Shown: one piece after another, positions 11,240 through 33,040 of the stretch | Layout of the letters: each line of letters opens with the position of its first letter | Numbering within the stretch: the stretch's first letter is position 1 | Assembly: GCA_043819035.1 (NCBI GenBank) | Contig: JBDRFD010000029.1 | Span: forward strand, 1-43,738 | Length of the DNA: 43,738 nucleotides | From: Patescibacteria group bacterium | Lineage (GTDB): Bacteria; Patescibacteriota; Gracilibacteria; Peribacterales; Peribacteraceae | Reading direction: 5' to 3' | Notes under the pieces: generated by a model | Seen by the model: the letters and a program-made list of their open reading frames with translations, nothing else | Databases searched by the model: none | Told to the model about the DNA's origin: nothing | Translations under genes and position numbers: made by a program

Positions 11240-11320
11240 GGAGCCGGAGATTAGGGGTTAGGCCGGAGGCCAGTCGCACATTACTCATCCTCCTAGACCA
11301 AACCCCTAATCTCTGGCTCC
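11240..11320. repeat. Inverted repeat with 20-bp arms (19/20 match) directly after the operon stop
   Basis: GGAGCCGGAGATTAGGGGTT (11240..11259) pairs with AACCCCTAATCTCTGGCTCC (11301..11320). This is a possible operon terminator hairpin. Confidence 0.85.
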
Positions 11321-11360
11321 ACAGAATATCTGGTAGGGGTTTGGCTTAAGAACGACAGTA

Positions 11361-11490
11361 AGGTTATAGGTGTTAGGTTAAATAGGTTTGGGGGATAGGT
11401 GTTTGGGTTGAAAGGTTATTATTAGCAACCTATTCCCTCATTACCTTTTCCCCAAACCCATCACCTATAACCTATAACCCTATCGTAAAT
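11361..11490. repeat. Imperfect long palindrome built from GGTTATAGG / GGTTTGGGG units
   Basis: The left arm reads AGGTTATAGGTGTTAGGT...GGTTTGGGGGATAGGTG. The right arm reads CCCCAAACCCATCACCTATAACCTATAACC. Confidence 0.6.
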
Positions 11491-11564
11491 AGTACTTCAT
11501 ATTTCCCTATAAGCTACCAGCCACAACCTAGTCTGCTAAACTATCACCAACTCCCCTCCTCACT

Positions 11565-12014
11565 ATGAACCTCAAACAGCGCAACTCCTTCACCCGACTC
11601 CGCACACTCCGCCGAGGTTTCACCCTCCTCGAACTAATGATCGTGCTAGGAATATTCGGTATCCTCGCCCTCATCGTTCTGGTTGCAATAAATCCAACCA
11701 AACAACTAAGCGAAGCACGCGGCGCGAACCGTCATGCGTCCGTGAGGGAAATAGAGAACGCTGTCATCCAGTACATCATTGATGGAAATGCGCTCGCAGG
11801 TATCCCCGCGGGAAAAATAAACTCACAGGATATCTGCAGAACAGGAATCTCGGGTGCGTGTTACGAACTCGATGTCCTTTCTCCGACGTATTTAGTCTCA
11901 CTTCCCATCGACCCGGACGAAACGGACCCGGATCTCACGGGTTATCGAATTTACATGCTTGGCAGCTTCATCAAGGTCTGCTCGCCGAGGGTGGACACCG
12001 ATTGTGGGACGTAA
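11565..12014 (+). CDS. Type IV pilin-like / pseudopilin protein with a prepilin N-terminal cleavage-methylation motif
   Basis: RRGFTLLELMIVLGIFGILALIVLVAINP matches the class III signal (G|FTLxE followed by a hydrophobic helix). The C-terminal region contains a Cys pair. Confidence 0.85.
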   Translation: MNLKQRNSFTRLRTLRRGFTLLELMIVLGIFGILALIVLVAINPTKQLSEARGANRHASVREIENAVIQYIIDGNALAGIPAGKINSQDICRTGISGACYELDVLSPTYLVSLPIDPDETDPDLTGYRIYMLGSFIKVCSPRVDTDCGT

Positions 12015-12045
12015 AGAAAGGGTAAAGTGTAAGGGGTAAGGGGAA

Positions 12046-12430
12046 AGGGGAAAGGGAAAATGTCTGAACCGTAGATTACGAACAATGTCTGAATCACGGA
12101 TATTACCTCTCCCCTCGATCCCCTCTCCACAGGAGAGGGGAAGCTCTGTTATTGCAGAAAACAGAGTTTTTACTTGTTAAACGAAGCTCCCCTTCCTCCC
12201 GTGGAGGAAGGGGCCGGGGGATGGAGGTAAAATCCGTGATTCAGACAACGTAAGAAGTTATGACAGAGATAAGTCTGAAACTAGGATTTGAAAGATTATC
12301 GACCTTCGCCTCTTGGCTACTAGGGACAAACTATGCTACGACCGATAAGAAAGGATTAAAGGATTAGCATGATTAATCTAGTTAATCCTTTAATCATGTG
12401 AATCATGGTCCCAGACAATTTGCTATCAGT
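12046..12430. repeat. Non-coding composite of nested palindromes, bounded by a ~70-bp direct duplication of the pilin gene 3' end
   Basis: It contains a family A inverted repeat (12086..12247), family B twin hairpins (12120..12213) and ATTAAAGGATTA...TAATCCTTTAAT (about 12354..12392). It is flanked by 11974..12045 and 12431..12500. Confidence 0.7.
12086..12247. repeat. Family A inverted-repeat element (TGTCTGAATCACGGAT arms)
   Basis: TGTCTGAATCACGGAT (12086..12101) and ATCCGTGATTCAGACA (12232..12247) are a perfect 16-bp inverted repeat, extendable to about 25 bp. Relatives lie at 20704..20820 and 35953..36054. Confidence 0.85.
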
Positions 12431-12599
12431 TCGCCGAGGGTGGACACCGATTGCGGAACGTAAAAAAGAGTAAAGTGTAAGGGGTAAGGGAAAAAGGGTA
12501 AGGGGAAAACGAATTTAATCAAGTTTTCCACTTTCCCTTTTCACTTTTCAGTTTCTTTCCGTTTCCCTTTACCCTTTTCCCCTTTAGAATCAACTCTCT

Positions 12600-15500
12600 A
12601 TGCAGCCCTCCGATTTCGTCCACTTACATTGCCACTCGACATATTCCTTGCTCGAAGCCCTACCAAGCCCTGCAGAGATTGTCGAACGTGCAAAAGAGCT
12701 CAAACAAACGGCCGTGGGAATCGCGGATAAGGGCTACACCTACGGGCTCGTGGAATTCTATAAGGTCGCGAAGGAGCAGGACATCAAGCCGATTTTGGGA
12801 ATGACAACATATGTTGCGGCACGATCGCGCCACGACCGCGAACGCGGGGTGGACTCGAAGCGTTACCCGCTTGTTCTCCTCGCAGAGACACAGGAAGGTT
12901 ACTCCAACCTATTAAAGCTTGCGACATTCGCCGCACTCGAAGGCATGTACTACAAGCCGCGTGTCGACAAAGAGCTTCTCAAAAAATATGGGAAAGGATT
13001 GATCGCACTAAGCGGACCAATCAGCGGTGCAATCCCAAGGGCGGCACTCGCAGAAGATGGAGAAGCACTCACGAAGCTGGCTGAGGAGTATTGGTCATTC
13101 TTCGGCAAAGAGAATCTCTATTTTGAATTGATGGATTTGCCGGAAGTTGCAGGGCAAGCGGAGGTGAATCAACAACTCATTAAATGGGGAAATGAACTCG
13201 ATGTGCCGCTGGTCGCAACATGCAACAGCCACTACTGCCGTCCGGGGGATAGTGAAGCGCACGATGTGCTGCTGTGTATTCAGAAGAACGCGAATGTAAC
13301 TGACCCGAGCCGCTTTTCCATGCGAGACACGGACTTCTCCATGCGCCCGTTTGAAGAGTTGGAGAAAGCTTTCGAGCATGCACCACAGGCTCTGGAAAAT
13401 ACACGTGTGATTGCAGACCGTTGTGACGTCACATTGGAATTTGGAAAGTACCATATCCCCCGCTTCCCTCTCCCAAAAGGGACAACAGAGGAACAAGAGC
13501 TGAAACGGCTCGCCGAAGAAGGCCTGAAGAAACGCTACAGAAAACCCACCAAAGAGCATCGAGAACGTTTGGATTATGAATTGAAAATCATCGAACAAGT
13601 TGGCTTTGCCGGGTACTTCCTGATCGTCTCGGACTTTGTAAACGAAGCAAAGAGCAGAGGGATTACCGTAGGACCGGGGCGAGGATCTGCTGCAGGTTCG
13701 ATCATTGCTTATTGTTTAGGAATAACCGGACTTGATCCGCTCGAACACGGACTTTTCTTCGAACGTTTCCTGAATCCTGAGCGTATCTCGATGCCCGACT
13801 TTGATATCGACTTCGCCGACACGCGCAGAGATGAAGTACTCGAGTACGTTCGCGGGAAATATGGAGAAGATCATGTTGTGCAAATCTGCACCTTTGGAAC
13901 ATTGGCAGCCAGAGCCGCTGTAAAAGACGTCGGTCGTGCGTACGGCGTTCCATTCTTGGAGATGAATACGCTTGTAAAATTCATTCCGGAGCGCCCGGGC
14001 ACCACACTCGCGGAGGCACTGGAAACGAGCGAACTCAAGGCCGCCTACGATAGCAACAAGACGTATAAGCAGATCATTGATACGGCGCTCAAACTTGAAG
14101 GAAAAGCTCGACACGTTTCAGTCCATGCATGCGGCGTGATCATTACCGAAGAGCCGGCAGTGCATAACACCGCCCTTCAGCGCGCGCCAAAAGATGACCT
14201 GACGATAATCACACAAACCGCTGCCAAACCATTGGAAGCGTTGGGCTTGCTGAAAATGGACTTCCTGGGGCTGATGAACCTCACAGTAATCCAGACAACA
14301 CTTAAAATTATCGAACGAATCGATAAGAAAAAACTTGATATTTCTTCCATCCCCCTCGACGACAAAAAAACCTACGCGCTTTTGCAGCGCGGCGATACAA
14401 CCGGCGTCTTCCAGTTGGAATCCGGAGGAATGCGCCGGTACTTAAAGCAACTCAAACCAACGGAGTTCGAGGATATCACCGCGATGATCTCACTCTTCCG
14501 CCCGGGCCCCATGGAATGGATACCCAGCTTCATCAAACGCAAGCACGGCAAAGAGGAAGTGAAGTACATACACAAAGATCTGGAGCCGATCCTCAAGCCC
14601 ACACATGGTATCGGAGTTTATCAGGAGCAAATTCTGCAGATGGCACAGACCTTTGCGGGGTTTAGCCTGGGTGAGGCGGACCTCCTGCGTCGTGCCATCG
14701 GGAAAAAGATAAAAAAGGAGCTCGACGCACAGCGTGAAAAGTTTATTGAGGGTTCCAAAAAACAGGGATATGACGAAAATCTTGCTATCAAGATCTTTGA
14801 CGACGTAGTAATGCCCTTTGCGGGATACGGGTTTAATAAATCACATGCCGCGGGTTATGCGCGCATCTCTTACGAGACCGCTTACCTAAAAGCAAACTAC
14901 CCTGCGGAGTTTATGGCGGCGCTCCTGAGTAGTGACGCGCAGAGAACTGATCGTGTGATGATCGAAATCGAGGAATGCCGCACGATGGGAATGGAGGTGC
15001 TGCCTCCTGACATTAATGAGTCGCTCAGGCACTTTACTGTGGTCCCAGGAACTGACAATCTGACCAAATCAGAAATCAGAAATCAGAAATCACAAAACAT
15101 TCGCTTTGGGCTGACCGCTATTAAAGGTATTGGGGACAGTACCGTTCAACAGGTGATCGCCATCCGTGATGAAGGCGGCAAGTTTGAAAGTATTGAGGAT
15201 TTCGCCAAACGCATTCCCGCAAAGATTCTAAACAAGAAGCTCTTGGAATCGCTCGCGAAGTCAGGTGCGCTCGACTGTTTTGGAGAGCGTCATGTGCTTG
15301 TAGAACACTACGACAGTATCGTGAACTTTGCGAAAGCTTTTGGTGATGTGAGCAGCTCTCAGACCAATCTCTTCGCAGGGATGGACGAAGCGATGACCGC
15401 GCCTACACTTGAATTCCCTGAAACAAAGGAGGCCTCGCTGCAACAGAAACTACAATGGGAAAAGGAAACGCTTGGTCTGTATGTTTCCAGCCACCCGCTC

Positions 15501-16406
15501 GCAGGCCTAAAGAAGTACATAGGCAAGAAGGCGCAGTTGGTCGCCAACCTCACAACGAAAGAAGTCGGTAAGAAGGTGACACTCGCCGGCATTGTGGAAG
15601 GGGTAAAGAAAATTACTACGAAGAAGGGGGAAACAATGGCAATCGTGTTCCTGGAAGATCCGACCGGAAAAATAGAAATCACGCTTTTTCCGCGAACATA
15701 TGCAGAAGCGGCTGAGTTTTTGGAAGAGCCTGATGTTGTCCTTGTCGCAGCCGGAATGCTCGACTACCGCGCAGGCCAGCTCCAGATGCGTGCCAACGCG
15801 GTGAAGAAGGCATCACTTTCCACAATGATTTCTCACGCCAAAGAGCAGGGATTCTTCGATGAGGAAGAGGCCAAAAAAGGAATCTCCTTCGTCAAACCTA
15901 TTCTGGACGAAGAGGAGCAGGTGGAGGTTCTGGATGAGGAAGGCAATGTGGTCGCAGGAGAAACTGTCACAATCAGTGAAGGAAAGGAGGAAGAGGAATA
16001 TTTGGGGCCGTTGGGTTCGTGGATCATCGGAGGAATGGATACTACTGATGTTTTGAAAGTTATTGGATTATATAAAGTCCCGGAATCAGGAATCAGGAAT
16101 CAGGAATCTGAAAATTCCAAGAAACAATCCCCGAATTCCAAATCCCTGATTCCTGATTCCACCCCAAAAACGGAAGAAATAACATCTCCCACCCACATTT
16201 CTATCCACACGATTGAACTCCCCGAGCGCGCACCGAAGAAAATGCTCCTGGATCTTAAAAAGGTTCTCGAAACATTTCCCGGAAAAGAGAAGGTGCAGCT
16301 TAAGATTGGCAAGCAACTCATTCCCCTTCCCATGACCGTTAGTTATTCAACCATTCTGCTCAAGAAGGTCGATGAAGTGATTGAAAAGTATTCCGCTGTT
16401 GCATGA
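12600..16406 (+). CDS. dnaE: DNA polymerase III alpha subunit
   Basis: The PHP-domain start is MQPSDFVHLHCHSTYSLLEA. Other motifs are MPDFDIDF, GLLKMDFLGL, an OB fold (VTLAGIVEGVKKITTKKGETMAIVFLEDPTG) and a C-terminal extension. Confidence 0.97.
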   Translation: MQPSDFVHLHCHSTYSLLEALPSPAEIVERAKELKQTAVGIADKGYTYGLVEFYKVAKEQDIKPILGMTTYVAARSRHDRERGVDSKRYPLVLLAETQEGYSNLLKLATFAALEGMYYKPRVDKELLKKYGKGLIALSGPISGAIPRAALAEDGEALTKLAEEYWSFFGKENLYFELMDLPEVAGQAEVNQQLIKWGNELDVPLVATCNSHYCRPGDSEAHDVLLCIQKNANVTDPSRFSMRDTDFSMRPFEELEKAFEHAPQALENTRVIADRCDVTLEFGKYHIPRFPLPKGTTEEQELKRLAEEGLKKRYRKPTKEHRERLDYELKIIEQVGFAGYFLIVSDFVNEAKSRGITVGPGRGSAAGSIIAYCLGITGLDPLEHGLFFERFLNPERISMPDFDIDFADTRRDEVLEYVRGKYGEDHVVQICTFGTLAARAAVKDVGRAYGVPFLEMNTLVKFIPERPGTTLAEALETSELKAAYDSNKTYKQIIDTALKLEGKARHVSVHACGVIITEEPAVHNTALQRAPKDDLTIITQTAAKPLEALGLLKMDFLGLMNLTVIQTTLKIIERIDKKKLDISSIPLDDKKTYALLQRGDTTGVFQLESGGMRRYLKQLKPTEFEDITAMISLFRPGPMEWIPSFIKRKHGKEEVKYIHKDLEPILKPTHGIGVYQEQILQMAQTFAGFSLGEADLLRRAIGKKIKKELDAQREKFIEGSKKQGYDENLAIKIFDDVVMPFAGYGFNKSHAAGYARISYETAYLKANYPAEFMAALLSSDAQRTDRVMIEIEECRTMGMEVLPPDINESLRHFTVVPGTDNLTKSEIRNQKSQNIRFGLTAIKGIGDSTVQQVIAIRDEGGKFESIEDFAKRIPAKILNKKLLESLAKSGALDCFGERHVLVEHYDSIVNFAKAFGDVSSSQTNLFAGMDEAMTAPTLEFPETKEASLQQKLQWEKETLGLYVSSHPLAGLKKYIGKKAQLVANLTTKEVGKKVTLAGIVEGVKKITTKKGETMAIVFLEDPTGKIEITLFPRTYAEAAEFLEEPDVVLVAAGMLDYRAGQLQMRANAVKKASLSTMISHAKEQGFFDEEEAKKGISFVKPILDEEEQVEVLDEEGNVVAGETVTISEGKEEEEYLGPLGSWIIGGMDTTDVLKVIGLYKVPESGIRNQESENSKKQSPNSKSLIPDSTPKTEEITSPTHISIHTIELPERAPKKMLLDLKKVLETFPGKEKVQLKIGKQLIPLPMTVSYSTILLKKVDEVIEKYSAVA

Positions 16407-16508
16407 TATATACTATCTATGAAATGGTTGGACGGTTCTAAAGTGGCAACAAGCCTGAGAATCGCTTGCGAGCCATCCAGCCATCCAACTATCCAGCCAT
16501 CCAACCAC

Positions 16509-17096
16509 ATGCAGATCCTCACTCCATCAGAAGCGGCCATAAACGTTGCCCTCCAAACCCTCGAAGATGGCGGAATAGTCGCACACGCGACAGAAACCTG
16601 CTACGGCCTTGCCTGTGATATGACAAATCCGGAAGCAGTCGAAAAGCTCTTTCTCATTAAAGAGCGAAATCCAAACCAGCCCATAAGCGCACTCTTCCCC
16701 ACTGTCGAAGCAACCGAAGGGTGGGTGGAGTGGAACGATGAAGCACGTGAGCTTGCAGCCAAGGAACTCCCCGGCCCTCTCACCATTGTTCTACCATGTA
16801 TTAAAGAAGAAATCTTCCCCACATCACCACTCCATTATTCCACCACGCTCGGCATCCGTGTTTCCTCTCATCCAATTGCTAAAGAACTTTCTGAAAAGTT
16901 TGGTAAGCCCATCAGTACCACTTCAGCCAATGTTTCCGGAGAACCATGTTCTTACAGTGCAGAAAATATTATCGGACAGTTCAAAGACAAAGAGCATAAA
17001 CCAGACCTTATTTTGGATAGCGGGCAGCTGGAAGAGAGATCTCCTTCGAAGGTTGTGTCGTTTATAAAAGATGAACCGCAGGTGTTGCGGTATTGA
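16509..17096 (+). CDS. tsaC: L-threonylcarbamoyladenylate synthase (Sua5/YrdC/TsaC family)
   Basis: YrdC-type motifs are VAHATETCYGLACD, GPLTIVLP and SANVSGEP. I moved the start to ATG 16509 because the 30 upstream codons of the track ORF are encoded by an 8-mer tandem repeat. Confidence 0.85.
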   Translation: MQILTPSEAAINVALQTLEDGGIVAHATETCYGLACDMTNPEAVEKLFLIKERNPNQPISALFPTVEATEGWVEWNDEARELAAKELPGPLTIVLPCIKEEIFPTSPLHYSTTLGIRVSSHPIAKELSEKFGKPISTTSANVSGEPCSYSAENIIGQFKDKEHKPDLILDSGQLEERSPSKVVSFIKDEPQVLRY

Positions 17097-17135
17097 GAAA
17101 TAGTAGTAAACTGATCGTCCTATTCTCCATTCATT

Positions 17136-17447
17136 ATGACTAGAATTGATACTAGCTCCATGGTCTCACATTGGTTGGATACCACAAATCGAACTGGAGC
17201 AACTGTTTTGGCTTCAATGAACGGATTACCGCCTGAAACTCAACTCCTAATGATGCAAAAACTTGCCGAGATGCGAGCAGGAACCCATTTGTTGGCCTCA
17301 AAAGCTTTCAGTATGGATGCCTTCCTGCACGAAATGGATCAGGAACTTCTCAGAAGAACGAGAGAACATTATCATCCAAATCCACTTCCTAAAGAAATTG
17401 AAGAAATCTTTCGTAGAAAAGGAGATCCAGACTCAGGCGAAAATTAA
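17136..17447 (+). CDS. Hypothetical protein (103 aa)
   Basis: ORF only, with no recognisable motif. Its composition is plausible for coding sequence. Confidence 0.45.
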   Translation: MTRIDTSSMVSHWLDTTNRTGATVLASMNGLPPETQLLMMQKLAEMRAGTHLLASKAFSMDAFLHEMDQELLRRTREHYHPNPLPKEIEEIFRRKGDPDSGEN

Positions 17448-17458
17448 ACATATAATAA

Positions 17459-17489
17459 ACGCAGCTGCGACGCGGCGTCGCAGCTGCGT
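17459..17489 (+). terminator. GC-rich near-perfect palindrome with 15-bp arms; possible terminator or a mobile-element end relic
   Basis: ACGCAGCTGCGACGC-G-GCGTCGCAGCTGCGT lies 12 nt after the stop at 17447. No T-run follows it. Confidence 0.4.
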
Positions 17490-17655
17490 ACTGGAACCGG
17501 AGAAATTCAATTCCATTCTCATGGACTGGCTGGTCTGGTACAACTGTGAAAGGCCACATTATGCTCATAAACTGGAAACCCCACTCCAATTTCTGTTATC
17601 CTTCTCCAAGACCCAGCAGGAGTGCAATTACAGGTGGACCGATACATACACTTGA
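17488..17655 (+). pseudogene. C-terminal remnant (about 55 codons) of a DDE integrase-type (rve) transposase
   Basis: The translation ...FNSILMDWLVWYNCERPHYAHKLETPLQFL... matches the conserved W-YN-x-RPH-x-L-x-TP tail of IS3/IS481-type transposases. No catalytic core lies upstream. Confidence 0.6.
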
Positions 17656-17680
17656 CTTACAAGTAGGTGTAGTATACGTT

Positions 17681-17962
17681 ATGCTCATGAGTAACCCATT
17701 TGAAGCAGAAAGTTTAACAGAAAAGGCAGCAAGGCAACAGGCACTAAATCATTCCTGCGGAGAGCTTGGCCACCGCATTTCACCATCAGAAGGAATGCAA
17801 CAAGCAGATGGCTCGTGGTTATTTGGTCTTGCTATTGTCGGTTGTGAGCCTGATGAAATGGCGTTAAAACAAATTCCTGGTGCGTCATTGACTGTCCGCC
17901 CGGACGGCCGAATTGATGGGACCACACACGAAGAATTAGTGAAGCTTATTGGAGGCAAATAG
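17681..17962 (+). CDS. Hypothetical protein (93 aa)
   Basis: ORF from ATG 17681 (MLMSNPFEAESLTEKAARQQ...). No recognisable motif. Confidence 0.4.
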   Translation: MLMSNPFEAESLTEKAARQQALNHSCGELGHRISPSEGMQQADGSWLFGLAIVGCEPDEMALKQIPGASLTVRPDGRIDGTTHEELVKLIGGK

Positions 17963-18186
17963 TCTCCCCAATTCATCTTTGAACTCTCTAAAAAGTACTC
18001 GCCTATTCGTGCGAATAGTTCTTTATGAGAATATTGAAACGCATGTGTGAACATTTATACATTCCATACGAAAGGCCCTCTAACAAAATCAACAGGCCAG
18101 TCTATTTCGAGAGACTTCTCCATTCCTCGCCATCATATACTCAGCGCGCTCTGGAACGGGTGCTCCTGAGTGTTAATTGTTAACTG

Positions 18187-18241
18187 CTTGCCGGCCGTAG
18201 CCTTGCTTGCCGGCCATAGCCTTCTTGTCGACCGTAGCTTT
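18187..18241. repeat. Three tandem ~19-bp units, flanked by TGTTAA hexamer runs
   Basis: The units are CTTGCCGGCCGTAGCCTTG, CTTGCCGGCCATAGCCTT and CTTGTCGACCGTAGCTTT. GTTAATTGTTAAC lies to the left and GTTAACTGTTAAATGTTAA to the right. Confidence 0.7.
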
Positions 18242-18303
18242 AGCGGAGGTTGAAGCGACGGCTGGGCGGAGGCTGGTTAACTGTTAAATGTTAATTTATT
18301 CAC

Positions 18304-18750
18304 TCAAACAAACAACTTCCCCAGCTCCTCCTTAAATTCTTCCACGTCCTTAAACTCCCGGTGCACAGACGCAAAACGGATGTACGCAACTTTGTCGATC
18401 TTCTTAAGCGCGCGCATCACATCCATACCGATAGTGGAACTGGCAACTTCTTTTTTGTTCGCTCCCCACTTCTCTTCGAGCTTCGAAAGAAGATTATCGA
18501 TCTTCTCTTTGGAAATCGGTCGCTTGGTGCACGCCACCCAAATCCCACGCTCAAGTTTAGACCTACTGTAAGGTTCCCGCGTTCCATCGCGCTTCACAAC
18601 GATCAATGAGCTCAACTCTTGCCGCTCGTAAGTTGTGAACCGGTGCGAGCACTTGGTGCACTCGCGGCGCCTCCTCACAGCCCTCCCATCCTCCGCGATG
18701 CGGGTATCAACGACCGAGGTATCCGAGGATCGGCAATGGGGGCAATGCAT
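18304..18750 (-). CDS. nrdR: Transcriptional repressor NrdR (zinc ribbon plus ATP-cone)
   Basis: MHCPHCRSSDTSVVDTR...RRRECTKCSHRFTTYE is the canonical NrdR zinc ribbon. The ATP-cone follows. Confidence 0.95.
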   Translation of the reverse strand: MHCPHCRSSDTSVVDTRIAEDGRAVRRRRECTKCSHRFTTYERQELSSLIVVKRDGTREPYSRSKLERGIWVACTKRPISKEKIDNLLSKLEEKWGANKKEVASSTIGMDVMRALKKIDKVAYIRFASVHREFKDVEEFKEELGKLFV

Positions 18751-18925
18751 ACGGCTACAGTAACACGTAGGTTGATATTTCTACACAATCGACTAAGAGA
18801 AAAGGGCAAAAAGAGAGAAAAGGGCAAAAAGGGACGGTAACGTTTCACAAAGCACCAAGTTTGTGCAATTCCTTTTTTTCCCTTTTTACCTTTTTTGCCC
18901 TTTTTTCCCATATACAATAGCCACC

Positions 18926-20686
18926 ATGCTCAGATCTCACACCTGCGGCGAACTCACCCAAAAGAACCTCAAAGAGGAAGTGACTCTCTGTGGCTGGGTC
19001 CACAGGCGTCGTGACCACGGAGGGCTGATTTTCATCGACCTGCGGGATCGCTACGGGTTTACCCAGATTGTAATCGACCCTGATAACAAAGGAATCTTCT
19101 CGGCCGCCGAGAAAGTCCGTTCTGAGTGGGTGCTGAAGATTACGGGCAGCGTTCGCAAAAGGCTGGAAGGCGCTGAGCGTGAAGATAATCCTACAGGGGA
19201 AATTGAAGTACTGGTTAAAGAGATTGAAGTATTAAACGAATCAAAGACTCCTCCATTCGAAATTGATCAGGAGAAAGAAATTAACGAAGAGTTGCGGCTG
19301 CAATACAGATACTTGGATATGCGTCGCGAGCGCATGCAAAAGAATTTGAGCCTTAGATCAAAAGTATTTCAGGTGATTAGAAAATACTTTATAGATCAAG
19401 GATGTTTGGAAGTTGATACACCCTGTCTTATTAAAGGAACTCCGGAGGGAGCGCGTGAGTATCTGGTTCCTTCCCGTATGTACCCCGGCACTTTCTTTGT
19501 ACTGCCCCAAAGCCCGCAACAACTTAAACAGCTCTGCATGGTTGGCGGTATGGATCGCTACTTCCAGTTGGCACGATGTTTTCGGGATGAAGATCTGCGC
19601 GGAGACAGGCAGCCGGAATTCATGCAACTGGACTTCGAAATGAGTTTTTGCGAACAGCAAGACGTTATGGGTATCATCCAGGGCTCTTTGGAATCAATTC
19701 TGAAAGAATGTGGCAAAAAGCCTCTCAAGGGCAAAAAAGTAGAAAGGTACACATGGCAGGAAGTTATGGACAAGTACGGATCGGATAAGCCTGATCTTCG
19801 TTACGACCTACCTATAACAGATGTTTCTGATATAAGTGATGGATGCGGATTCCAGGTATTCGAAGACTCGCTAAAAAACAACGGTACGGTCCGCGCACTT
19901 TGTGTTCCCGGAGGAGCAGAATTATCCCGAAGTGAAATTGATAAATGGACAGATCTTGTAAAAGAACAAAAGGCCAGGGGCCTTGCGTACATTCTCTTCA
20001 AAGAAGACGGCCCTCAGTCGCCGCTTATTAAATTCTTCGCAGATGGATACCTGGAAAAACTGCAAAAGGCCACAGGTGCAAAGGCTGGAGATGCTCTCTT
20101 CTTTGGCGCAGACAAATTCAAAGTCGTATGCGCGGCTCTCGGAAAAATAAGACAGGAGGTAGCTGTTCGTTTTTCTTTGATTGATGAGTCTGTCCACTCC
20201 ATGCTCTGGGTAACGGACTTCCCTCTCTGTGAAGAAGGTGAAGATGGTGGAATTACATTCTCACATCATCCTTTCACGCATCCTTGTTTGGATGAGTGGG
20301 AAAAACGGGATACTGATCCGCTTGGCATTCACGCGATTTGTTATGACCTGATTTTGGATGGCTATGAACTTGGCTCCGGATCCATCAGGATTCATGACCG
20401 CAAACTGCAATCCGAAGTTTTCGATCTGCTTGGCATATCAAAAGAAGATCAGCTAAAGCGCTTCGGACATATGCTAAAGGCCTTCGAATACGGCGCCCCT
20501 CCGCACGGAGGATTCGCGTACGGAATAGACCGTGTTGTGATGATTTTGGCAGGAGAACCAAACATCCGCGAGGTAACTCCGTTCCCCAAGGACCAGAAGG
20601 CTAAGGACTTGATGCTGAGCGCACCATCTGTCGTTCCTAAAAAACAACTCGATGAGCTGGGGATAAAAGTGGTGGAGGGGGAGTAG
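18926..20686 (+). CDS. aspS: Aspartate--tRNA ligase (bacterial type)
   Basis: MLRSHTCGELTQKNLKEEVTLCGWVHRRRDHGGLIFIDLRDRYG, plus class II motifs (FFVLPQSPQQLKQL, FRDEDLRGDRQPEF, GSGSIRIHD). I moved the start to 18926 because the upstream track codons fall in a palindromic repeat. Confidence 0.95.
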   Translation: MLRSHTCGELTQKNLKEEVTLCGWVHRRRDHGGLIFIDLRDRYGFTQIVIDPDNKGIFSAAEKVRSEWVLKITGSVRKRLEGAEREDNPTGEIEVLVKEIEVLNESKTPPFEIDQEKEINEELRLQYRYLDMRRERMQKNLSLRSKVFQVIRKYFIDQGCLEVDTPCLIKGTPEGAREYLVPSRMYPGTFFVLPQSPQQLKQLCMVGGMDRYFQLARCFRDEDLRGDRQPEFMQLDFEMSFCEQQDVMGIIQGSLESILKECGKKPLKGKKVERYTWQEVMDKYGSDKPDLRYDLPITDVSDISDGCGFQVFEDSLKNNGTVRALCVPGGAELSRSEIDKWTDLVKEQKARGLAYILFKEDGPQSPLIKFFADGYLEKLQKATGAKAGDALFFGADKFKVVCAALGKIRQEVAVRFSLIDESVHSMLWVTDFPLCEEGEDGGITFSHHPFTHPCLDEWEKRDTDPLGIHAICYDLILDGYELGSGSIRIHDRKLQSEVFDLLGISKEDQLKRFGHMLKAFEYGAPPHGGFAYGIDRVVMILAGEPNIREVTPFPKDQKAKDLMLSAPSVVPKKQLDELGIKVVEGE

Positions 20687-20703
20687 GCGTCCGAGCCACC
20701 ATT

Positions 20704-20820
20704 TGTCAGAATCACGGATTACACTGATTCAACGGATTTCACAGATATTCGTTAAAGTGTGGCATGCAATTTTTATAATCCGTGTAATCCGCTTAATCCA
20801 TTAAATCCGTGATTCTGACA
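20704..20820. repeat. Family A inverted-repeat element; probably also the aspS terminator
   Basis: TGTCAGAATCACGGATT (20704..20720) and AATCCGTGATTCTGACA (20804..20820) are a perfect 17-bp inverted repeat followed by TTTTT. TAATCCG-type units are tandemly repeated in the interior. Confidence 0.85.
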
Positions 20821-20894
20821 TTTTTCCCGCTAACTGCTAATCCCCCATATTTGGGACACTAGTGGCTATTCTGGCCTATTTGTGCTAGAATAGG

Positions 20895-21926
20895 ATGATG
20901 CCCAAAAAGAAACCCAAAAAGAAACCGGGCCGAAAAAATCTGAGCCCAAAAGCCGCCCGTAAAGCTTTTTTACAGAAGCAATTTATGCAGGCCCAGCAAC
21001 TTGTCTTCAAAGAAAAAGCTCGCCAGGAAGCTACTAAAGGGGAACACAAAGAGGAAAGGGCAGCTGGGGAAGAGCTCGCACAGGAGCAGCTCAGTGAGAG
21101 ACAGCTTGAGGAAGAAAAGCAAAAGAAGGGGCGTGAGGAATGGAAGAAGAAAGAAGAAAAGGAAAAGGAGCTCCTCGCAGAAATGAAACGCAAACAAGAA
21201 GAAGAGAAGAAAAACCGCCGGAAATTCAAAGAACATCTGCAGGAGGAAGAGAAAAAGAATAAGCAACTGATGGAAGATCTCGCCGCTTCGAATGCCATCC
21301 GAGATAAAATGGAACGCAGAAAGATGGAAGGAGCTAAACTGGAAAGAGATACCAGGGCAGAGGCGAAAAGTACCGAAAACCGCAAACAGAATGAAGCTGA
21401 GATGAACGCAAAGAGTAAGAAGAAACAACTGGAATTGGCTAACAGAAAGGTGCAGGGGAAAATAGATGAAGAAGAACGGAGCAAAACGTATGTACTGGAG
21501 GATGAAGCACGAAGGCAAAAGGCAAAGCTTGACAACCAAGAACGCAAAAAGAAATCTGATCTTAAGTTCGCCTATGAACGCAAGCGAGCTGAAACACAAC
21601 GATTCACGAATCCGTATCAACAAAAAAGCGAAGTTATGAAGATTGACCGTGGGGAGCAAAGTGAACTGAAAAAGATAGAGGCAGAAACGCGCAGGCAGCA
21701 ATCGGAAATTGATGCGAAAACCAAGAAGGCGATCTTCGATGTTCAAAAGGAAGCAAGCCACAAGCGCGGTCAGGCCGCCTCGGATGAGCGCGGGCAAATA
21801 ACGCAGATCGACCTGGAGAAGCGTGAGGCCAAACGCCTGGCAGAACTGGAGGCCTCGCAGAAAAAGGCCGGCATCCGCCGCAGGCAGATCAAGATTTTGC
21901 ACGGAGAAGAGGAAACGGATTCCTAA
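20895..21926 (+). CDS. Highly charged Lys/Glu/Arg-rich low-complexity protein (343 aa)
   Basis: The plus frame gives a coiled-coil-like K/E/R sequence. The antisense ORFs are F/L/S-rich shadows. The 3' end has a diverged second copy at 22659..22715 with mostly synonymous differences, which supports this reading frame. Confidence 0.6.
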   Translation: MMPKKKPKKKPGRKNLSPKAARKAFLQKQFMQAQQLVFKEKARQEATKGEHKEERAAGEELAQEQLSERQLEEEKQKKGREEWKKKEEKEKELLAEMKRKQEEEKKNRRKFKEHLQEEEKKNKQLMEDLAASNAIRDKMERRKMEGAKLERDTRAEAKSTENRKQNEAEMNAKSKKKQLELANRKVQGKIDEEERSKTYVLEDEARRQKAKLDNQERKKKSDLKFAYERKRAETQRFTNPYQQKSEVMKIDRGEQSELKKIEAETRRQQSEIDAKTKKAIFDVQKEASHKRGQAASDERGQITQIDLEKREAKRLAELEASQKKAGIRRRQIKILHGEEETDS

Positions 21927-21962
21927 TGCACCGAACCAGGATTGAGGAGCTCCACTTCGTCT

Positions 21963-22319
21963 TCAAGAGTCACCATCCATATCGTTAAGCATTATGGTGA
22001 TTACTTTTTTGAGAACAGGCAGGTCTTTTTTAACAGTATCCCATACTCTCTGAACATTTGTCGCAGAGTATTCGTGAATGAGAATGTTGCGCATACTAAT
22101 AGCTTCCTTCCAGGATATCTGCTTGTACTTCTTTCTTAAAAGAACCGGCAGTTTACTGGCGGCTTCTCCGATAATCGATATCTGACGAATGACAGCATCC
22201 TGAGTTTTATCATCTCTACAAAACAATCTCTTCCCTTCGGTTGTGTATTCCTCAATATGAACAATGGCATTCAGGATATCATCCAAATATACCCGAACAT
22301 CTTTCTGTTGCTTGGTCAT
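21963..22319 (-). CDS. hepT: HEPN-domain (DUF86) toxin of a HepT/MntA-type module
   Basis: The R-x4-H motif is MRNILIHEY. The size and the 4-bp overlap with the upstream nucleotidyltransferase gene fit. Confidence 0.85.
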   Translation of the reverse strand: MTKQQKDVRVYLDDILNAIVHIEEYTTEGKRLFCRDDKTQDAVIRQISIIGEAASKLPVLLRKKYKQISWKEAISMRNILIHEYSATNVQRVWDTVKKDLPVLKKVITIMLNDMDGDS

Positions 22320-22627
22320 AATGCTCGAGCATCGGAAAGAATGCGCCTGCGTAGCGCAGGCTTGATGCTATCATCCGGAATAACATCTATTTTCCTTTGC
22401 AGAGTTTCTTCCAAATCAATTTTTAGTCCTGCAAGATCAAATAGCGTACTCCCCTTTGGCATCTTCACCAGAAGATCCAGATCGCTGCCCTTGGTCTGTT
22501 CCCCGCGGGAAAAAGAGCCGAAGACACGTACATTGCGCACTCCATGTTTGCGCGCAATACGCAACACCGGTGCACGCAGTCGTGCCATATTAAATCTCGC
22601 CTTGTGCAATTTCTTCTGATTGCTCAT
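22316..22627 (-). CDS. mntA: Minimal nucleotidyltransferase (MNT) antitoxin
   Basis: VFGSFSRGEQTKGSDLDLLV contains the GS-x-RGE...DxD nucleotidyltransferase motif. Confidence 0.85.
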   Translation of the reverse strand: MSNQKKLHKARFNMARLRAPVLRIARKHGVRNVRVFGSFSRGEQTKGSDLDLLVKMPKGSTLFDLAGLKIDLEETLQRKIDVIPDDSIKPALRRRILSDARAL

Positions 22628-22729
22628 AGCCTTATTATATCAAAGAACTATAAGACATAGAAAAAGGCCGGTATCCGCCGCAGGCAGATCAGAATCTTGC
22701 ATGGAGAAGAGGAAGAGTAATACGGCTTC

Positions 22730-22758
22730 GCGGAAAATATGCCATAAGCGTTTTCCGC
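22730..22758 (+). terminator. Hairpin after the relic copy of the K/E-gene 3' end
   Basis: GCGGAAAA, a 13-nt loop, then TTTTCCGC, followed by TAATTATT. Confidence 0.4.
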
Positions 22759-22894
22759 TAATTATTGAACATATGTACGATTCCGCTATGCCGCTATTAC
22801 TGCATATTTCTAGAAGTAATTAGCGTTAATTTCTTAACGATCTATCAGCAGAATGCTAGGCACAATCCCTAAAGAGAATTAGACTAAACACTGT

Positions 22895-22981
22895 GCCCAG
22901 GTGGCGGAATTGGTAGACGCGCTAGCCTTAGGAGCTAGTGGGATTAATCCCGTGGAGGTTCGATTCCTCTCCTGGGCACCA
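22895..22981 (+). tRNA. tRNA-Leu (anticodon UAG), class II with a long variable arm, CCA encoded
   Basis: Hand-folded cloverleaf. Acceptor GCCCAGG/CCTGGGC. Anticodon stem CTAGC/GCTAG with loop CTTAGGA. Variable arm GGGAT-TA-ATCCC. T arm GGAGG-TTCGATT-CCTCT. Discriminator A followed by CCA. Confidence 0.93.
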
Positions 22982-23116
22982 GAATTGAATCACATCAAAT
23001 AGCCTATTAGAATTTGTCATCTCCGAAAGGAGCCGTCCGTAGCTCCAATTTGTCCTACATAACTTTGGCAACGGAGGAAGGAGCGAGGGAGGCTCCTGGG
23101 CACCAGAAGATATTTA

Positions 23117-29525: not shown

Positions 29526-29562
29526 CTTACTCCTCCTGCAACCTAAGAGGCATTATCAGGTG
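29526..29562. repeat. Exact 37-bp copy of the dnaN 3' end (last 11 codons, stop, plus 1 nt)
   Basis: CTTACTCCTCCTGCAACCTAAGAGGCATTATCAGGTG is identical to 33040..33076. Confidence 0.9.
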
Positions 29563-29683: not shown

Positions 29684-31174
29684 ATGCTGAATATTGGCCT
29701 CGTACATCTTGTGCTCGTTGCTAGCTTATTAACAAACATCGTCTTGATGACTATCAATACACAAGGCCCTTCTCAGCTTGGGCAAATCATGGGAGACCCC
29801 TTTGTGGATGAATTTTATGAAGAGCCACAGGATATACTAGATCTTTTTGATTTTACGTCCGACCCCTCACCTGAACATGGTACATTTTACTCAGACTATG
29901 AAGATAGGGATGACGATGATGAGGAGCATGAGCCCTTTACTTCTGAAGCGCCTCTTGATCCTCCCGGTGAGCATGTCCCCGCTCTTACGCTTGCACATGA
30001 CACAGAGATCTCCTCATTACATAGCACTTTTGCCTCCGCTGCTGGACATGAGCCTGCTGAATCCGCAAGTGAATCTATTCACCATCCGGAAGATTCTTCC
30101 TACCATGACCCGGCTCTATCTACAGCTGGACATGACCCTGTGGTATCAACTGGCGATCATGAATCAACTCTTTCCCCGAGGCACGATGAAACACTCTCTA
30201 CTATGGGGCACTACCCTGTAGATAGTAGTACACATACAGCTTATGATTCTTTGAGCCATACCCCATCATTATCGACGAGCGGGCATTACCCCAGGCTCTC
30301 TGCAGACGGTAAACATGATCCCTCGGATTCTGGTTCTAAACATGATTCCTTTGCTTCTGCTACTCACGACATTACCGAATCATACATTGGGCATTGGCCA
30401 AGTGTGTCTGCTACGCATTCTGCTCTTGATTCATCCAGCCATGAAAGCGAGCTTTCTGTTGTTGGACACCACCCATCAATTTCCATACTACATACCATTG
30501 GTTACTCAGAAGCTCACAGCACCGAGGACTCTAAAGCTGGTCATGACCCCTTTGTGTCGACTGATGCTGAACATTCACCATCTGACTCATATGCTCATGA
30601 TCCTGTTGTAAGTGGAGCAGCCCCTCATGACCCTACTATGAGCACTGGTGGTCATTCTTTGAGTGACTCCTTAGGTGGTCATCCTGGTATGCATACGGTT
30701 TCATTAAGTGAAGAGGGGGCTCGTGCTCTTATGGAGGCTCATGCTATTGTTGGGAGTGAGCCTCATGACGCTGAATATTCCAGCTCTGATCATGATACTG
30801 CTGCTTCCGACGGTGAGCATAATCCTTTTTTATCACATGATCTAGCAACATCACTTGGTGATCATTTATCGAGTGCTTCCTCAATGCATACAGTACCTAA
30901 AAGCGAAGAAGGGGCTCATGATATTGTTGGGAGTGAGCCTCATGACGCTGAATATTCCGGTATTGGCCATACCACTAGTGACTCCTCAGGCATTCACGAT
31001 CCCGTTGTAAGTGAAGAAACCTATCATGATTCTGCTATGTCAACCGGTGACCATCCTGAGCCTCATGACCCGGCCTTCTCTGTTTTAGAACAACATTATG
31101 CCTCCGACTCAGGTCATGGGGAGGGTCACGATCCAATGGATTCATACGACGAAGATGGTGGTTACGGTGAGTAG
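29684..31174 (+). CDS. Membrane-anchored His/Asp/Ser/Pro-rich repeat protein (degenerate x-H-D-P-x-x-S units)
   Basis: The N-terminal TM segment is LVHLVLVASLLTNIVLMTI. It carries many GHDPVVS/HDPxxS-like units. The same repeat continues in frame after the TAG up to 31288. Confidence 0.7.
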   Translation: MLNIGLVHLVLVASLLTNIVLMTINTQGPSQLGQIMGDPFVDEFYEEPQDILDLFDFTSDPSPEHGTFYSDYEDRDDDDEEHEPFTSEAPLDPPGEHVPALTLAHDTEISSLHSTFASAAGHEPAESASESIHHPEDSSYHDPALSTAGHDPVVSTGDHESTLSPRHDETLSTMGHYPVDSSTHTAYDSLSHTPSLSTSGHYPRLSADGKHDPSDSGSKHDSFASATHDITESYIGHWPSVSATHSALDSSSHESELSVVGHHPSISILHTIGYSEAHSTEDSKAGHDPFVSTDAEHSPSDSYAHDPVVSGAAPHDPTMSTGGHSLSDSLGGHPGMHTVSLSEEGARALMEAHAIVGSEPHDAEYSSSDHDTAASDGEHNPFLSHDLATSLGDHLSSASSMHTVPKSEEGAHDIVGSEPHDAEYSGIGHTTSDSSGIHDPVVSEETYHDSAMSTGDHPEPHDPAFSVLEQHYASDSGHGEGHDPMDSYDEDGGYGE

Positions 31175-31294: not shown

Positions 31295-32392
31295 TTAGTC
31301 GTTTTTTGGATCCTTTGTAATACAGCCTGTTAGCTCTTGTTGATCTTTAAACTTCTTTTGGCATGCAGCTACATGCCCCCAGATATCTACCATTTGTGAG
31401 TATGTTATGTATGGAGAGATAAGAACCCGGCTTGGCTTTCGATTGCCAGATTCATCCAGAAAATCTCCTCTTCCGCGTACTTTACCTTCTAAAGTTGGAT
31501 ATACCCTTATAATGTACTGCTCGAATTCTTCCGGATCCACAAAGTTATCTGCAAGCTGATCGAAGGGCCCATCATAATAATTATTCTGTCGCACATTCAT
31601 TTTATCTACTCCAAACAGAATTTTCCTTCCCATCCCAGGCTCATCATAAAATGCAAATCCTGAGCGCCTTCCTACGTAAATATCTTTCCCATACGGTTGA
31701 AGAAGATCGGGCAATGGTGCGGATTCATCTAGAACAAATCTGAATCTGGATTGCGTTTCATCAAAAAGAAGGACTAATTGAAATCCGGATTCATCAAATG
31801 TGCGCACAACAAATATTTCCCCCTCGTGCATTCTCATATCTACAGGCTCAGTTTGTGAAACATTGTGCAGAAGGAATGTTACAGTCTTATCTTTATATGT
31901 AACCGTGTATTCCAAATCATCAATTTTCTTCAGGATGACACCATCTTCATCGGAGAGATTTTTGTGCCATGATTCCCTATACTCAAAGTATGGTTCGCGC
32001 CGGTTTGTCACCCGAAAGTATGCGAAGCTAATGATCCCTTCTTCACGATCAATACTATCCAACCGAATATTCCCCCATATGTCCCCGCCATTTGCATAGA
32101 AATGGAAGTAGTAATAGTTCTCAGTTGGATACACATTCACAGTGTCTTTGAGCGAGCCAAACACGTATGAAAACATCGATTCAATGTCATCAAGATCCAG
32201 GGATTCTGATCTTACTTCGTCTATAAACTCTTCATTTGTATAGAGTTTGGGCATATTCCCTTTTAATGCTTCTGGGTCATTTCCTGTACCAACAGTTGAG
32301 CTCTGATTGGCACACCCCGTTAGAACCACACTAATTATGAGTGTTGCTATAGCGCCGATGGATTTCAAATAATTTATTTTCATCTTGTTCAC
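31295..32392 (-). CDS. Hypothetical lipoprotein (365 aa)
   Basis: The lipobox is ...IISVVLTGCANQSS, preceded by a basic N-terminus (MNKMKINYLK). Confidence 0.75.
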   Translation of the reverse strand: MNKMKINYLKSIGAIATLIISVVLTGCANQSSTVGTGNDPEALKGNMPKLYTNEEFIDEVRSESLDLDDIESMFSYVFGSLKDTVNVYPTENYYYFHFYANGGDIWGNIRLDSIDREEGIISFAYFRVTNRREPYFEYRESWHKNLSDEDGVILKKIDDLEYTVTYKDKTVTFLLHNVSQTEPVDMRMHEGEIFVVRTFDESGFQLVLLFDETQSRFRFVLDESAPLPDLLQPYGKDIYVGRRSGFAFYDEPGMGRKILFGVDKMNVRQNNYYDGPFDQLADNFVDPEEFEQYIIRVYPTLEGKVRGRGDFLDESGNRKPSRVLISPYITYSQMVDIWGHVAACQKKFKDQQELTGCITKDPKND

Positions 32393-32439: not shown

Positions 32440-33010
32440 TGAGCAACTGAACACCCCTCGCCTTAAAGGCGAGGGGTTCGCGCTGCACTGAAGTGCCCTC
32501 GTTATTGGATATCCACAGTTCCGTGCTGCAATTCTTCTCCTTCTTGATTATCGATGTATTCCTTAATCATCTCATCTGTGATCGCACCACTTGATACTGC
32601 AAGGTATCCTCTTGCCCAGAAATGACGCCCCCAGAAGGTTTTGCGGACAGATGGAAAGAGAGAAAACAGTTTGTAAGGGCTTTCCCCTTTGATCTTTTGC
32701 ATAAGTTTTGAAATTGAAAGATGTGGTGGGTAGGATGCGAAGAGATGGACATGATCAATGGCAACTTTCCCTGAGATGATCTCTACATCTTCTTCCTGAC
32801 ATATTTGACGGATGAGATCTCGTACTTTCTCTCCAACTTGCCCATACAGTATTTTTTTGCGGTATTTTGGAACCCAGACTAGATGAACTTTAAGATCGTA
32901 TTTGCTGTGAGAAGTGGTGCGATAGTGCCTCATAAAAAGGCCACGTAGGGTACCACAAGTTGAGTAAGTGTCGAACTGAAGTCTCCGCCTAAAGGCGGGG
33001 GGTTTCACCC
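32440..33010 (-). mobile_element. IS200-type insertion sequence (IS200/IS605 family, tnpA only); boundaries approximate
   Basis: tnpA is flanked by subterminal hairpins CCCCTCGCC-TTAAA-GGCGAGGGG (32454..32476) and CTCCGCC-TAAA-GGCGGGG (32983..33000). Confidence 0.8.
32502..32933 (-). CDS. tnpA: IS200/IS605-family Y1 (HUH) transposase TnpA
   Basis: Motifs are MRHYRTTSHSKYDLKVHLVWVPKYRKK, the HUH motif HVHLF, and a C-terminal Tyr region (YIDNQ). I moved the start to 32933 so that the upstream hairpin is non-coding. Confidence 0.9.
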   Translation of the reverse strand: MRHYRTTSHSKYDLKVHLVWVPKYRKKILYGQVGEKVRDLIRQICQEEDVEIISGKVAIDHVHLFASYPPHLSISKLMQKIKGESPYKLFSLFPSVRKTFWGRHFWARGYLAVSSGAITDEMIKEYIDNQEGEELQHGTVDIQ

Positions 33011-33040
33011 ATTCCCCGAACTAGATACTAAGGACCACAC

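Follow-up and report, generated by a model that had tools for sequence, protein, structure and literature searches.

Integrative elements target the 3' ends of housekeeping genes, where one of the repeats that come to flank the element restores the end of the gene (PMC5704250). Cis-mobilisable elements (CIMEs), which are decayed remnants of integrative and conjugative elements (ICEs) or integrative and mobilisable elements (IMEs), keep attL and attR without an integrase and can accrete in tandem (PMC5704250). The textbook case in a protein-coding gene is the prophage e14, which is flanked by icd and by icdC, a C-terminal relic of that gene; only synonymous and conservative changes distinguish the two ends (PMC13626634). 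The order of homologous segment, foreign DNA and homologous segment, with no enzyme of the element itself, is also what would be predicted for insertion-duplication (Campbell-type) integration of non-replicating circles and for homology-facilitated illegitimate recombination (HFIR) in competent bacteria (PMC3240628, PMC3784515). Here we describe a locus in a 43,738-nt stretch of contig JBDRFD010000029.1 (assembly GCA_043819035.1; hereafter the window), in which a toxin-antitoxin (TA) operon encoding MntA and HepT lies between two copies of the 3' end of a lysine- and glutamate-rich (K/E) gene.

As judged from the flanking aspartyl-tRNA synthetase (AspRS) gene (aspS, 18863-20686), the host of the window is a Candidatus Peribacteria/Peregrinibacteria bacterium of the Candidate Phyla Radiation (CPR). 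It was compared with a set of related Peribacteria loci, referred to by L-numbers; the tblastn survey with the K/E gene covered 80 loci, and later scans covered 98 loci (1.24 Mb). Four sister strains (L081-L084) were represented by the Logan assemblies SRR10598175 and SRR10598176 and by the NCBI metagenome-assembled genomes GCA_018827745.1 and GCA_018827065.1.

Insertion of the operon at the end of the K/E gene

In the window, an MntA-HepT operon has been inserted 6 bases before the stop codon of the K/E gene. By then the lineage had separated from the relatives L001 and L036, whose AspRS is 89% identical, but not yet from the sister strains, which share ~97% nucleotide identity with the window. 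The features of the locus are listed in Table 1.

Table 1. Coordinates of the features discussed in the text (window positions).
Feature	Position	Strand	Evidence or remark
K/E-rich coiled-coil-like gene, insertion target, 343 aa	20895..21926	+	Downstream of aspS across Peribacteria
Copy A	21859..21914	+	Supplies the translated C-terminus of the K/E protein (..KKAGIRRRQIKILHGEEE)
New tail, 3 codons and stop, ACGGATTCCTAA = TDS*	21915..21926	+	Comes from inserted DNA; takes the place of the native final Glu codon and stop
Inserted segment, 744 bp, without counterpart in relatives	21915..22658		Comparison with related loci and sister strains
HepT toxin, 118 aa, HEPN RNase, motif R77-x4-H82-x-Y84	21963..22319	-	PF01934, E=4.7e-24
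MntA antitoxin, 103 aa, minimal nucleotidyltransferase, G37S38-x10-D49-x-D51	22316..22627	-	PF01909, E=7.9e-15
Extended -10-like element TGATATAAT upstream of mntA	22634..22642	-	Read from the sequence and the L085 alignment (TGGTACAAT at the equivalent place)
Copy B (22659-22714) with GAGTAA, the displaced native K/E end (..HGEEEE*)	22659..22720	+	Untranslated relic
Window-specific 134-nt insert containing hairpin 22730-22758	22722..22855	+	Not in sister strains or L001
Native spacer from K/E stop to tRNA-Leu	22856..22894	+	Homologous to the ~40-nt spacer of sister strains and L001
tRNA-Leu(TAG), conserved right neighbour of the K/E gene	22895..22981	+	tRNA call; only Rfam match in the region
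dnaN of the window	33041-34201	-	Distal repeat copy again joined to native downstream DNA

The preliminary description of this DNA reported diverged direct repeats of about 57 bp around the TA pair, and these were recovered at the positions given there as two copies of 56 nt that are identical at 51 of the 56 positions and start 800 nt apart (around 8e-15 such matches would be expected in the window by chance). All four codon differences that it listed were also verified: GGC/GGT, ATT/ATC and CAC/CAT are synonymous, and AAG/AGA exchanges Lys for Arg. The homology of copy A ends 6 nt before the stop codon, and it is copy B that is followed directly by GAGTAA (Glu-stop), reading KKAGIRRRQIRILHGEEEE-stop. 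Copy B is thus in frame to a stop, as had been noted, though an in-frame TAG located precisely at the left junction prevents its translation from upstream. By means of the proximal copy the K/E protein stays almost full length, with its final Glu replaced by Thr-Asp-Ser, while the native end, still in continuity with its own stop and spacer, has been displaced and forms the distal copy.

The K/E protein had no Pfam or NCBIfam match. Its gene has a ratio of non-synonymous to synonymous substitution rates (dN/dS) of ~0.14 against a sister strain, and a C-terminal AGIRRxQIxILHG block is conserved among its relatives. In the tblastn survey, eight related loci had the K/E gene downstream of aspS and no TA pair, and L004 gave a weaker ninth match; the homologues in L036 and L001 are 60% and 58% identical, respectively, and those in the six other loci are more distant. 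HepT was encoded in none of the 80 loci (0/80), and an MntA-like protein only in the distant L018, where it is solitary. In L001 and L036 the K/E proteins end in ...ILHGKEGE* and ...ILHGKEDE*, that is, with one Glu and a stop past the conserved block, as in copy B, and tRNA-Leu(TAG) lies within 12-41 nt of the K/E stop. A tRNA-Leu also follows close behind the K/E stop in L051, L072, L055 and L056; in five of the eight relatives, the gap measures between a few tens and ~150 nt. These comparisons show an ancestral order of aspS, K/E gene, short spacer and tRNA-Leu(TAG). The preliminary description had predicted an empty site in which the K/E gene ended as copy B does, followed by a terminator; the cassette-free K/E gene was indeed present in the relatives, but it is followed by tRNA-Leu and not by the terminator.

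The contigs of the four sister strains are ~96.7% identical to positions 14287-22721 of the window and contain the same cassette, both copies and both junctions, so the insertion predates the split between the window and these strains. All four encode an identical, 90-residue version of MntA. Both cassette genes are intact in all five assemblies, with low dN. No cassette-free strain was found at >90% identity, nor was any relative seen with two copies of the K/E end and no cassette between them, the arrangement that the preliminary description had named as the mark of a simple tandem duplication, which is therefore unsupported.

Searches beyond the comparison set returned little. No record matched the window's K/E protein, HepT or DnaN exactly; the K/E protein, a low-complexity query, had no match at E<=1e-5 in a set of 5.8 billion proteins; metagenome scans using the K/E alignments recovered no relatives; and scans of viral contigs with the K/E repeat, HepT and a degenerate dnaN-end pattern were all empty.

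The MntA-HepT cassette

Class I HepT/MntA pairs are defined by the signature motifs RX4HXY and GSX10DXD (PMC7641770). In the Shewanella system, the tyrosine of RX4HXY receives three AMP from the minimal nucleotidyltransferase (MNT) enzyme, and the RNase is thereby blocked (Yao et al., 2020, PMC7641770).

Just as first described, the TA pair fills the space between the two copies: hepT and mntA, both on the minus strand, are the only genes within the 744 bp. In the operon mntA is upstream of hepT, and its stop codon overlaps the hepT start (ATGA). HepT scores 84.8 bits against PF01934 (cutoff 23.5) and matches NF047751 with E=2.3e-11, below the cutoff of that family. Its motif, RNILIHEY, spans residues 77-84; R77 and H82 are invariant among 23 homologues and Y84 is found in at least 90% of them. 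A single-sequence phmmer search with HepT found no HepT in the PDB; the profile of the 23 homologues matched HepT of Shewanella oneidensis (5YEP, E=8e-12) over a stretch that includes the RNIxxHxY motif. The GS-x10-DLD motif of MntA is GSFSRGEQTKGSDLD (residues 37-51), and the protein matches the minimal nucleotidyltransferase 1WOT in the PDB (E=6.4e-17) and the PADLOC candidate family PDC-S09 (E=2.4e-31). We infer that the pair functions as a class-I type VII TA module, its catalytic motifs being intact. HepT is predicted to be an RNase acting through RX4H, which MntA would neutralise by AMP addition to Y84. The TA pair itself is ordinary and belongs to the most abundant TA family.

The extended -10-like element upstream of mntA is probably the promoter of the cassette, although it was not among the calls of the consensus promoter scan; any -35 element would span the boundary to copy B. 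The G+C content of the 744-bp segment is not distinct from that of its surroundings.

The preliminary description had suggested looking for the same cassette under other flanks. No near-identical copy was found; the nearest relative, in L085, lies between unrelated genes without flanking repeats, with a HepT that is 76% identical at the amino acid level and 77% identity over 602 nt of DNA. The alignment runs from ~22653 to ~21977, i.e., from ~25 nt upstream of the mntA start, including the TGnTAnAAT element, to near the end of hepT, and the homology stops at the junctions with the K/E repeats. Because it covers both genes and the sequence upstream and ends at the junctions, the insert is a complete foreign operon with its promoter-proximal region. 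The 56-nt duplication belongs to this insertion event and not to the TA family. In the more distant L018, the solitary MntA-like gene (11207-11530, 44% identical) lies between a K/E homologue and tRNA-Leu; neither a HepT match nor flanking repeats were found in that locus.

No gene for a recombinase or transposase lies between the repeats, the 744 bp being filled by hepT and mntA, and the ends of the cassette have no terminal inverted repeats. Target-site duplications of transposons and insertion sequences are typically ~2-15 bp, whereas the duplication here is 56 bp. The flanking repeats consist of target-gene sequence and are not the imperfect palindromes of integron attC sites; intI was not among the window open reading frames (ORFs) scanned, which were not all of them, and no attC model was run. 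Of the earlier label "discrete mobile cassette", the discreteness stands, with sharp junctions and no recombinase gene, but mobility is unproven, no second near-identical copy having been found anywhere.

Recombination since the insertion

Compared over 14287-22721, window and sister sequences make up a mosaic whose blocks diverge by 0-11% per 300 nt, as is usual in populations that recombine; to the right of the K/E relic the divergence rises abruptly to ~20%. The K/E gene differs by 6.6% (dS 0.24), and copy A at 5/56 positions, giving four synonymous changes and one Lys/Arg change. The cassette differs at 10/744 positions (~1.3%), and copy B together with its stop at 0/63. The Lys in copy A is a strain-specific change, since the sister copy A has Arg like copy B. 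With copy B as the outgroup, copy A differed from copy B at only 2-3 sites, all synonymous, at the time of the strain split.

Five random substitutions in the K/E repeat would yield one amino acid change or fewer with P=0.025, which indicates that the differences arose under purifying selection. Mutation alone, at the synonymous rate observed, would have altered an unconstrained relic far more, so the differences between the copies come from recombination with diverged, functional K/E alleles. The distribution of the differences shows that, after the insertion, a diverged allele (6.6%) recombined into the locus and overwrote the K/E gene together with copy A. Because this later replacement is directly visible, the differences between the copies cannot tell an in-situ duplication from an imported homologue; they neither date nor explain the insertion. 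The mosaic as a whole points to homologous recombination being frequent in this CPR population. That copy B is perfectly conserved was also considered as a sign of functional constraint, which is not demonstrable given that 600-nt blocks of 0% divergence occur elsewhere.

The same layout at other gene ends

Within the 1.24 Mb, six loci show small cassettes within duplicated ends of housekeeping genes, none with a recombinase. The layout occurs once more in the window itself, where the final 36 nt of dnaN and the base after them (33040-33076) recur exactly (37/37) at 29526-29562, 3.5 kb downstream. These copies bracket two ORFs without family matches (29684-31174 and 31295-32392) and an IS200-like TnpA (32502-33008), and in 12 related loci dnaN and mfd are direct neighbours, 42-262 nt apart. 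Two ORFs of this insert, of 365 and 496 aa, were considered as possible integrases and rejected, there being no supporting Pfam or NCBIfam match. The transposase gene is part of a minimal IS200-like element (32440-33030; Y1 transposase, PF01797, E=2.4e-40) that abuts the dnaN stop codon 10 kb from the cassette and is flanked by two similar G+C-rich hairpins (~32452-32485 and ~32975-33010).

In L001 (9939-8931, minus strand), dnaN is followed by a 0.8-kb insert with a 229-codon ORF, which lies between 95-nt and 126-nt copies of the dnaN end with downstream DNA. The coding parts of these copies have five differences, all synonymous (P=0.001 for five random substitutions), and the limits of the dnaN repeats nearly coincide in the two genomes. 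At aspS of L057 (9717-10698), 71 nt of the gene end bracket a DUF5320 and DUF134 pair. The repeats of the window dnaN, L001 dnaN and L057 aspS all include the stop codon and downstream DNA.

Two further loci contain arrays. Next to nrdR of L024 (5245-7674) there are two paralogous cassettes (39% amino acid identity), each followed by a relic of the nrdR end, and a 237-nt block of relic and upstream sequence is 86% identical between the cassettes, with 86-95% for the relic and promoter region. This similarity fits a conserved att-proximal module. At aspS of L032 (9724-11699), the aspS end occurs three times among tandem paralogues. The recurrence of the layout at dnaN, aspS and nrdR suggests a recurrent process in the clade.

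Repeat pairs in L014, L048, L079 and L047 proved to be paralogues or internal protein repeats and were not counted. Elsewhere in the window, an 84-nt repeat (11977-12060 and 12426-12509; 74% identical, or 90% over 79 nt by blastn) has its copies 449 nt apart with no long ORF between them. The repeated sequence consists of G-rich DNA and, before it, the 3' end of a pilin-like gene (11565-12014, N_methyl motif), and may be a decayed tandem paralogue or another gene-end relic.

Flanking sequences and the tRNA-Leu junction

In the sister strains, the relic stop and the tRNA-Leu(TAG) to its right are separated by a 40-nt spacer, which is homologous to the L001 spacer. The window has the additional 134-nt insert in this place, no further copy of which was found in the window or the 98 loci. 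The hairpin that the preliminary description took for the terminator of the K/E gene (8-bp stem, 13-nt loop) sits in this lineage-specific insert, so it cannot be regarded as the native terminator; nor was it among the calls of the terminator scan, and the surrounding fold is not unusual (z = -0.73). A possible homology continuing past copy A with a 7-nt gap (ACGGATTCC vs ACGGCTTCG) was likewise rejected, as the sequence after copy B is the lineage-specific insert.

Further observations concern the tRNA. In the window, the 3' end of tRNA-Leu(TAG), CTCCTGGGCACCAGAA (22969-22984), is repeated exactly 124 nt downstream (23093-23108). The sister strains have a different tRNA-Leu(TAG) allele (~78% identical; L082 5457-5543), with a remnant of the window-type 3' end behind it (L082 ~5390-5370), and L001 and L036 have the allele of the window. 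The repeat and the remnant look like scars of integration or replacement at the tRNA. In L036, the tRNA-Leu (2330-2416) beside the K/E stop has the opposite orientation to its counterparts in L001, the window and the sister strains. Past the tRNA the genes differ, with one 775-aa protein in the window and proteins of 304/313 aa and 944 aa in the sisters. The junction between the K/E gene and the tRNA is a hotspot of rearrangement. The Kiritimatiellales label of L036 and L070, which carry Peribacteria-like genes, suggests a binning error.

On the left side of the K/E gene, the intergenic region after aspS (20704-20820) contains a long imperfect hairpin with 43-nt arms that are 81% complementary and a 31-nt loop. 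Rfam matches to microRNA precursors were weak, below threshold and surely spurious.

Origin of the insertion

The origin that we favour, with a probability of roughly 0.5, is single-crossover (Campbell-type) integration of a circle with a gene-end homologue, either by a recombinase acting in trans or by homologous recombination. The circle would have carried the cassette and a short homologue of the 3' end of the target gene, and one crossover would then give the attL/attR-like layout. The catalyst could have been a site-specific recombinase supplied in trans, as for a decayed, CIME-like integrative element, or the host could have carried out RecA-mediated homologous recombination following DNA uptake. 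Once in place, the insert should be stabilised by the release of toxin that would follow loss of the module, and also by the 9% divergence between the repeats. This family of mechanisms is favoured because the layout recurs at conserved gene ends, because the dnaN limits nearly coincide and because of the L024 array.

A number of results weigh against it. Apart from the separate IS200-like element, remnants of an integrase, excisionase or transfer gene were found in none of the six cases (0/6), and no intact element was found at the K/E, dnaN, aspS or nrdR ends in the 98 related loci. The metagenome and viral scans were negative, and neither a circular form nor a strain variant with the empty site nor a second copy of the cassette was found. 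The L085 cassette and three more related loci, two of which hold an MntA-HepT pair and one (L094) only a called HepT, have unrelated contexts and no flanking repeats. Copy A stops short of the stop codon, though a selected "gene-end mimic" should include it, and the L057 aspS relic has two non-synonymous codon changes, as simple decay predicts. Finally, divergence confined to synonymous sites would be accounted for just as well if the functional copy had undergone allelic replacement following an in-situ duplication.

The most serious competitor is that foreign linear DNA was inserted illegitimately with a long target duplication made in situ, from a staggered break with nicks 56 nt apart that were filled in or from two sister chromosomes broken 56 nt apart, and that the differences between copies identical at first arose by later recombination with diverged alleles. 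This is less probable than the integration of a circle. The sharp junctions without microhomology and the lack of a recombinase or intact element are what it would predict, and so are the 37/37 identity of the window dnaN copies, the non-synonymous decay in L057, the 2-3 sites at which the ancestral copy A differed from copy B, the visible replacement of the K/E allele after the insertion, the absence of repeats around related cassettes and the end of copy A before the stop codon. However, repeats of 37-126 nt far exceed any known transposase-type duplication and always involve the 3' end of a conserved gene, and dnaN was struck at nearly the same position in two genomes. Moreover, the L024 relics are closer to each other than to the functional end and share a conserved non-coding segment, which is hard to obtain from independent random breaks.

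Single-crossover integration may also be taken further. On this rather unlikely extension, Peribacteria, and perhaps other CPR bacteria, would host recombinase-less cassettes that use a short copy of the 3' end of a housekeeping gene (the K/E gene, dnaN, aspS or nrdR) as attachment site, circulate as circles or taken-up DNA, integrate via a host single crossover and form integron-like arrays.

Less probable again is an origin in two steps, in which the cassette was inserted 62 nt upstream of the stop, cutting off 20 residues, and the C-terminus was regained from a diverged K/E allele. The repair would be an HFIR event, anchored in the gene body and with its illegitimate join just after ...GAGGAA. 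Such events are documented for integration with one-sided homology (PMC3240628), and the conserved C-terminal AGIRRxQIxILHG block in the relatives, the missing native stop of copy A and the position of copy A within the high-divergence K/E block, where the last difference lies 9 nt before its end, all agree with this sequence of events. On the other hand, it requires two rare events and a truncated intermediate that was not seen, and it leaves unexplained the repeats that span the stop codon and downstream DNA at the window dnaN, L001 dnaN and L057 aspS.

That the TA pair is self-mobile, i.e., that the HepT/MntA module or a cis site directs transposition and creates the 56-bp duplication, is very improbable: the cassette is discrete and its junctions are sharp, but neither protein has a DNA-recombination domain, terminal inverted repeats are absent, three related MntA-HepT cassettes and one HepT locus elsewhere have no flanking duplications, and the other cases of the layout carry unrelated cargo. 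An assembly artefact or simple tandem duplication of the gene end can be dismissed, for although these are metagenome-assembled sequences and short repeats can mislead assemblers, an artefact is ruled out by the four other assemblies with the cassette and both junctions (in all, five assemblies of two diverged strain types, which have the two junctions in common), the copies differ at 5 positions and are not collapsible, the intervening DNA is a foreign operon with homologues elsewhere, and no relative has two copies without the cassette.

Significance and comparison with known systems

CPR bacteria have few classical mobile elements and possess competence-like machinery. The locus is a well-resolved example of an addiction module that has settled in a very compact CPR genome while the conserved gene was kept, with both the empty site and the history after the insertion visible. 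If the common mechanism holds, it would be a route for the acquisition of accessory genes in the CPR, the candidates being a host-mediated single crossover or a trans-acting integrase, and duplicated gene ends would provide a simple sequence signature for acquired DNA in CPR genomes. If the class of recombinase-less cassettes also exists, TA modules and other accessory genes would be acquired in very small genomes by anchoring at gene ends.

As a TA module, the pair shares with HepT/MntA of S. oneidensis (SO_3166/SO_3165) a PF01934 HEPN gene downstream of a PF01909 MNT gene, overlapping genes and both motifs intact. It differs in being only distantly related in sequence, with the NCBIfam equivalog below cutoff, and in its CPR host.

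The e14/phage 21 insertion in icd of E. coli resembles the K/E locus in its position at the 3' end of a gene that remains functional with an alternative end, in the displaced C-terminal relic on the far side, and in the synonymous or conservative nature of the changes between the two ends. However, e14 is a ~15-kb prophage with its own integrase and SOS-induced excision, whereas the insert in the window is 0.74 kb, has no recombinase, and shows a homology that stops 6 nt before the stop codon. With CIMEs, the locus has in common direct repeats of which one contains the 3' end of a housekeeping gene, the lack of integration and transfer genes and, in L024 and L032, tandem arrays of relics. Unlike CIMEs, the window case bears no trace of ICE or IME descent, no cognate integrase or intact element was found in 1.24 Mb, and the repeats are 37-126 nt.

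The minimal mobile elements that Saunders and Snyder are said to have described in Neisseria in 2002 reportedly consist of small cassettes, or none, between fixed flanking genes, without mobility genes and with presumed uptake and homologous recombination. Cassettes free of mobility genes, and recombination of the kind seen in the mosaic of window and sister strains, are points of likeness, but the Neisseria elements have no duplicated piece of a neighbouring gene. Insertion-duplication and HFIR are known mainly from laboratory constructs and transformation, whereas the window would need a natural circle joining the TA operon to the K/E end. The architecture of the insertion therefore has known analogues, and its recombinase-free recurrence in Peribacteria deserves a systematic survey.

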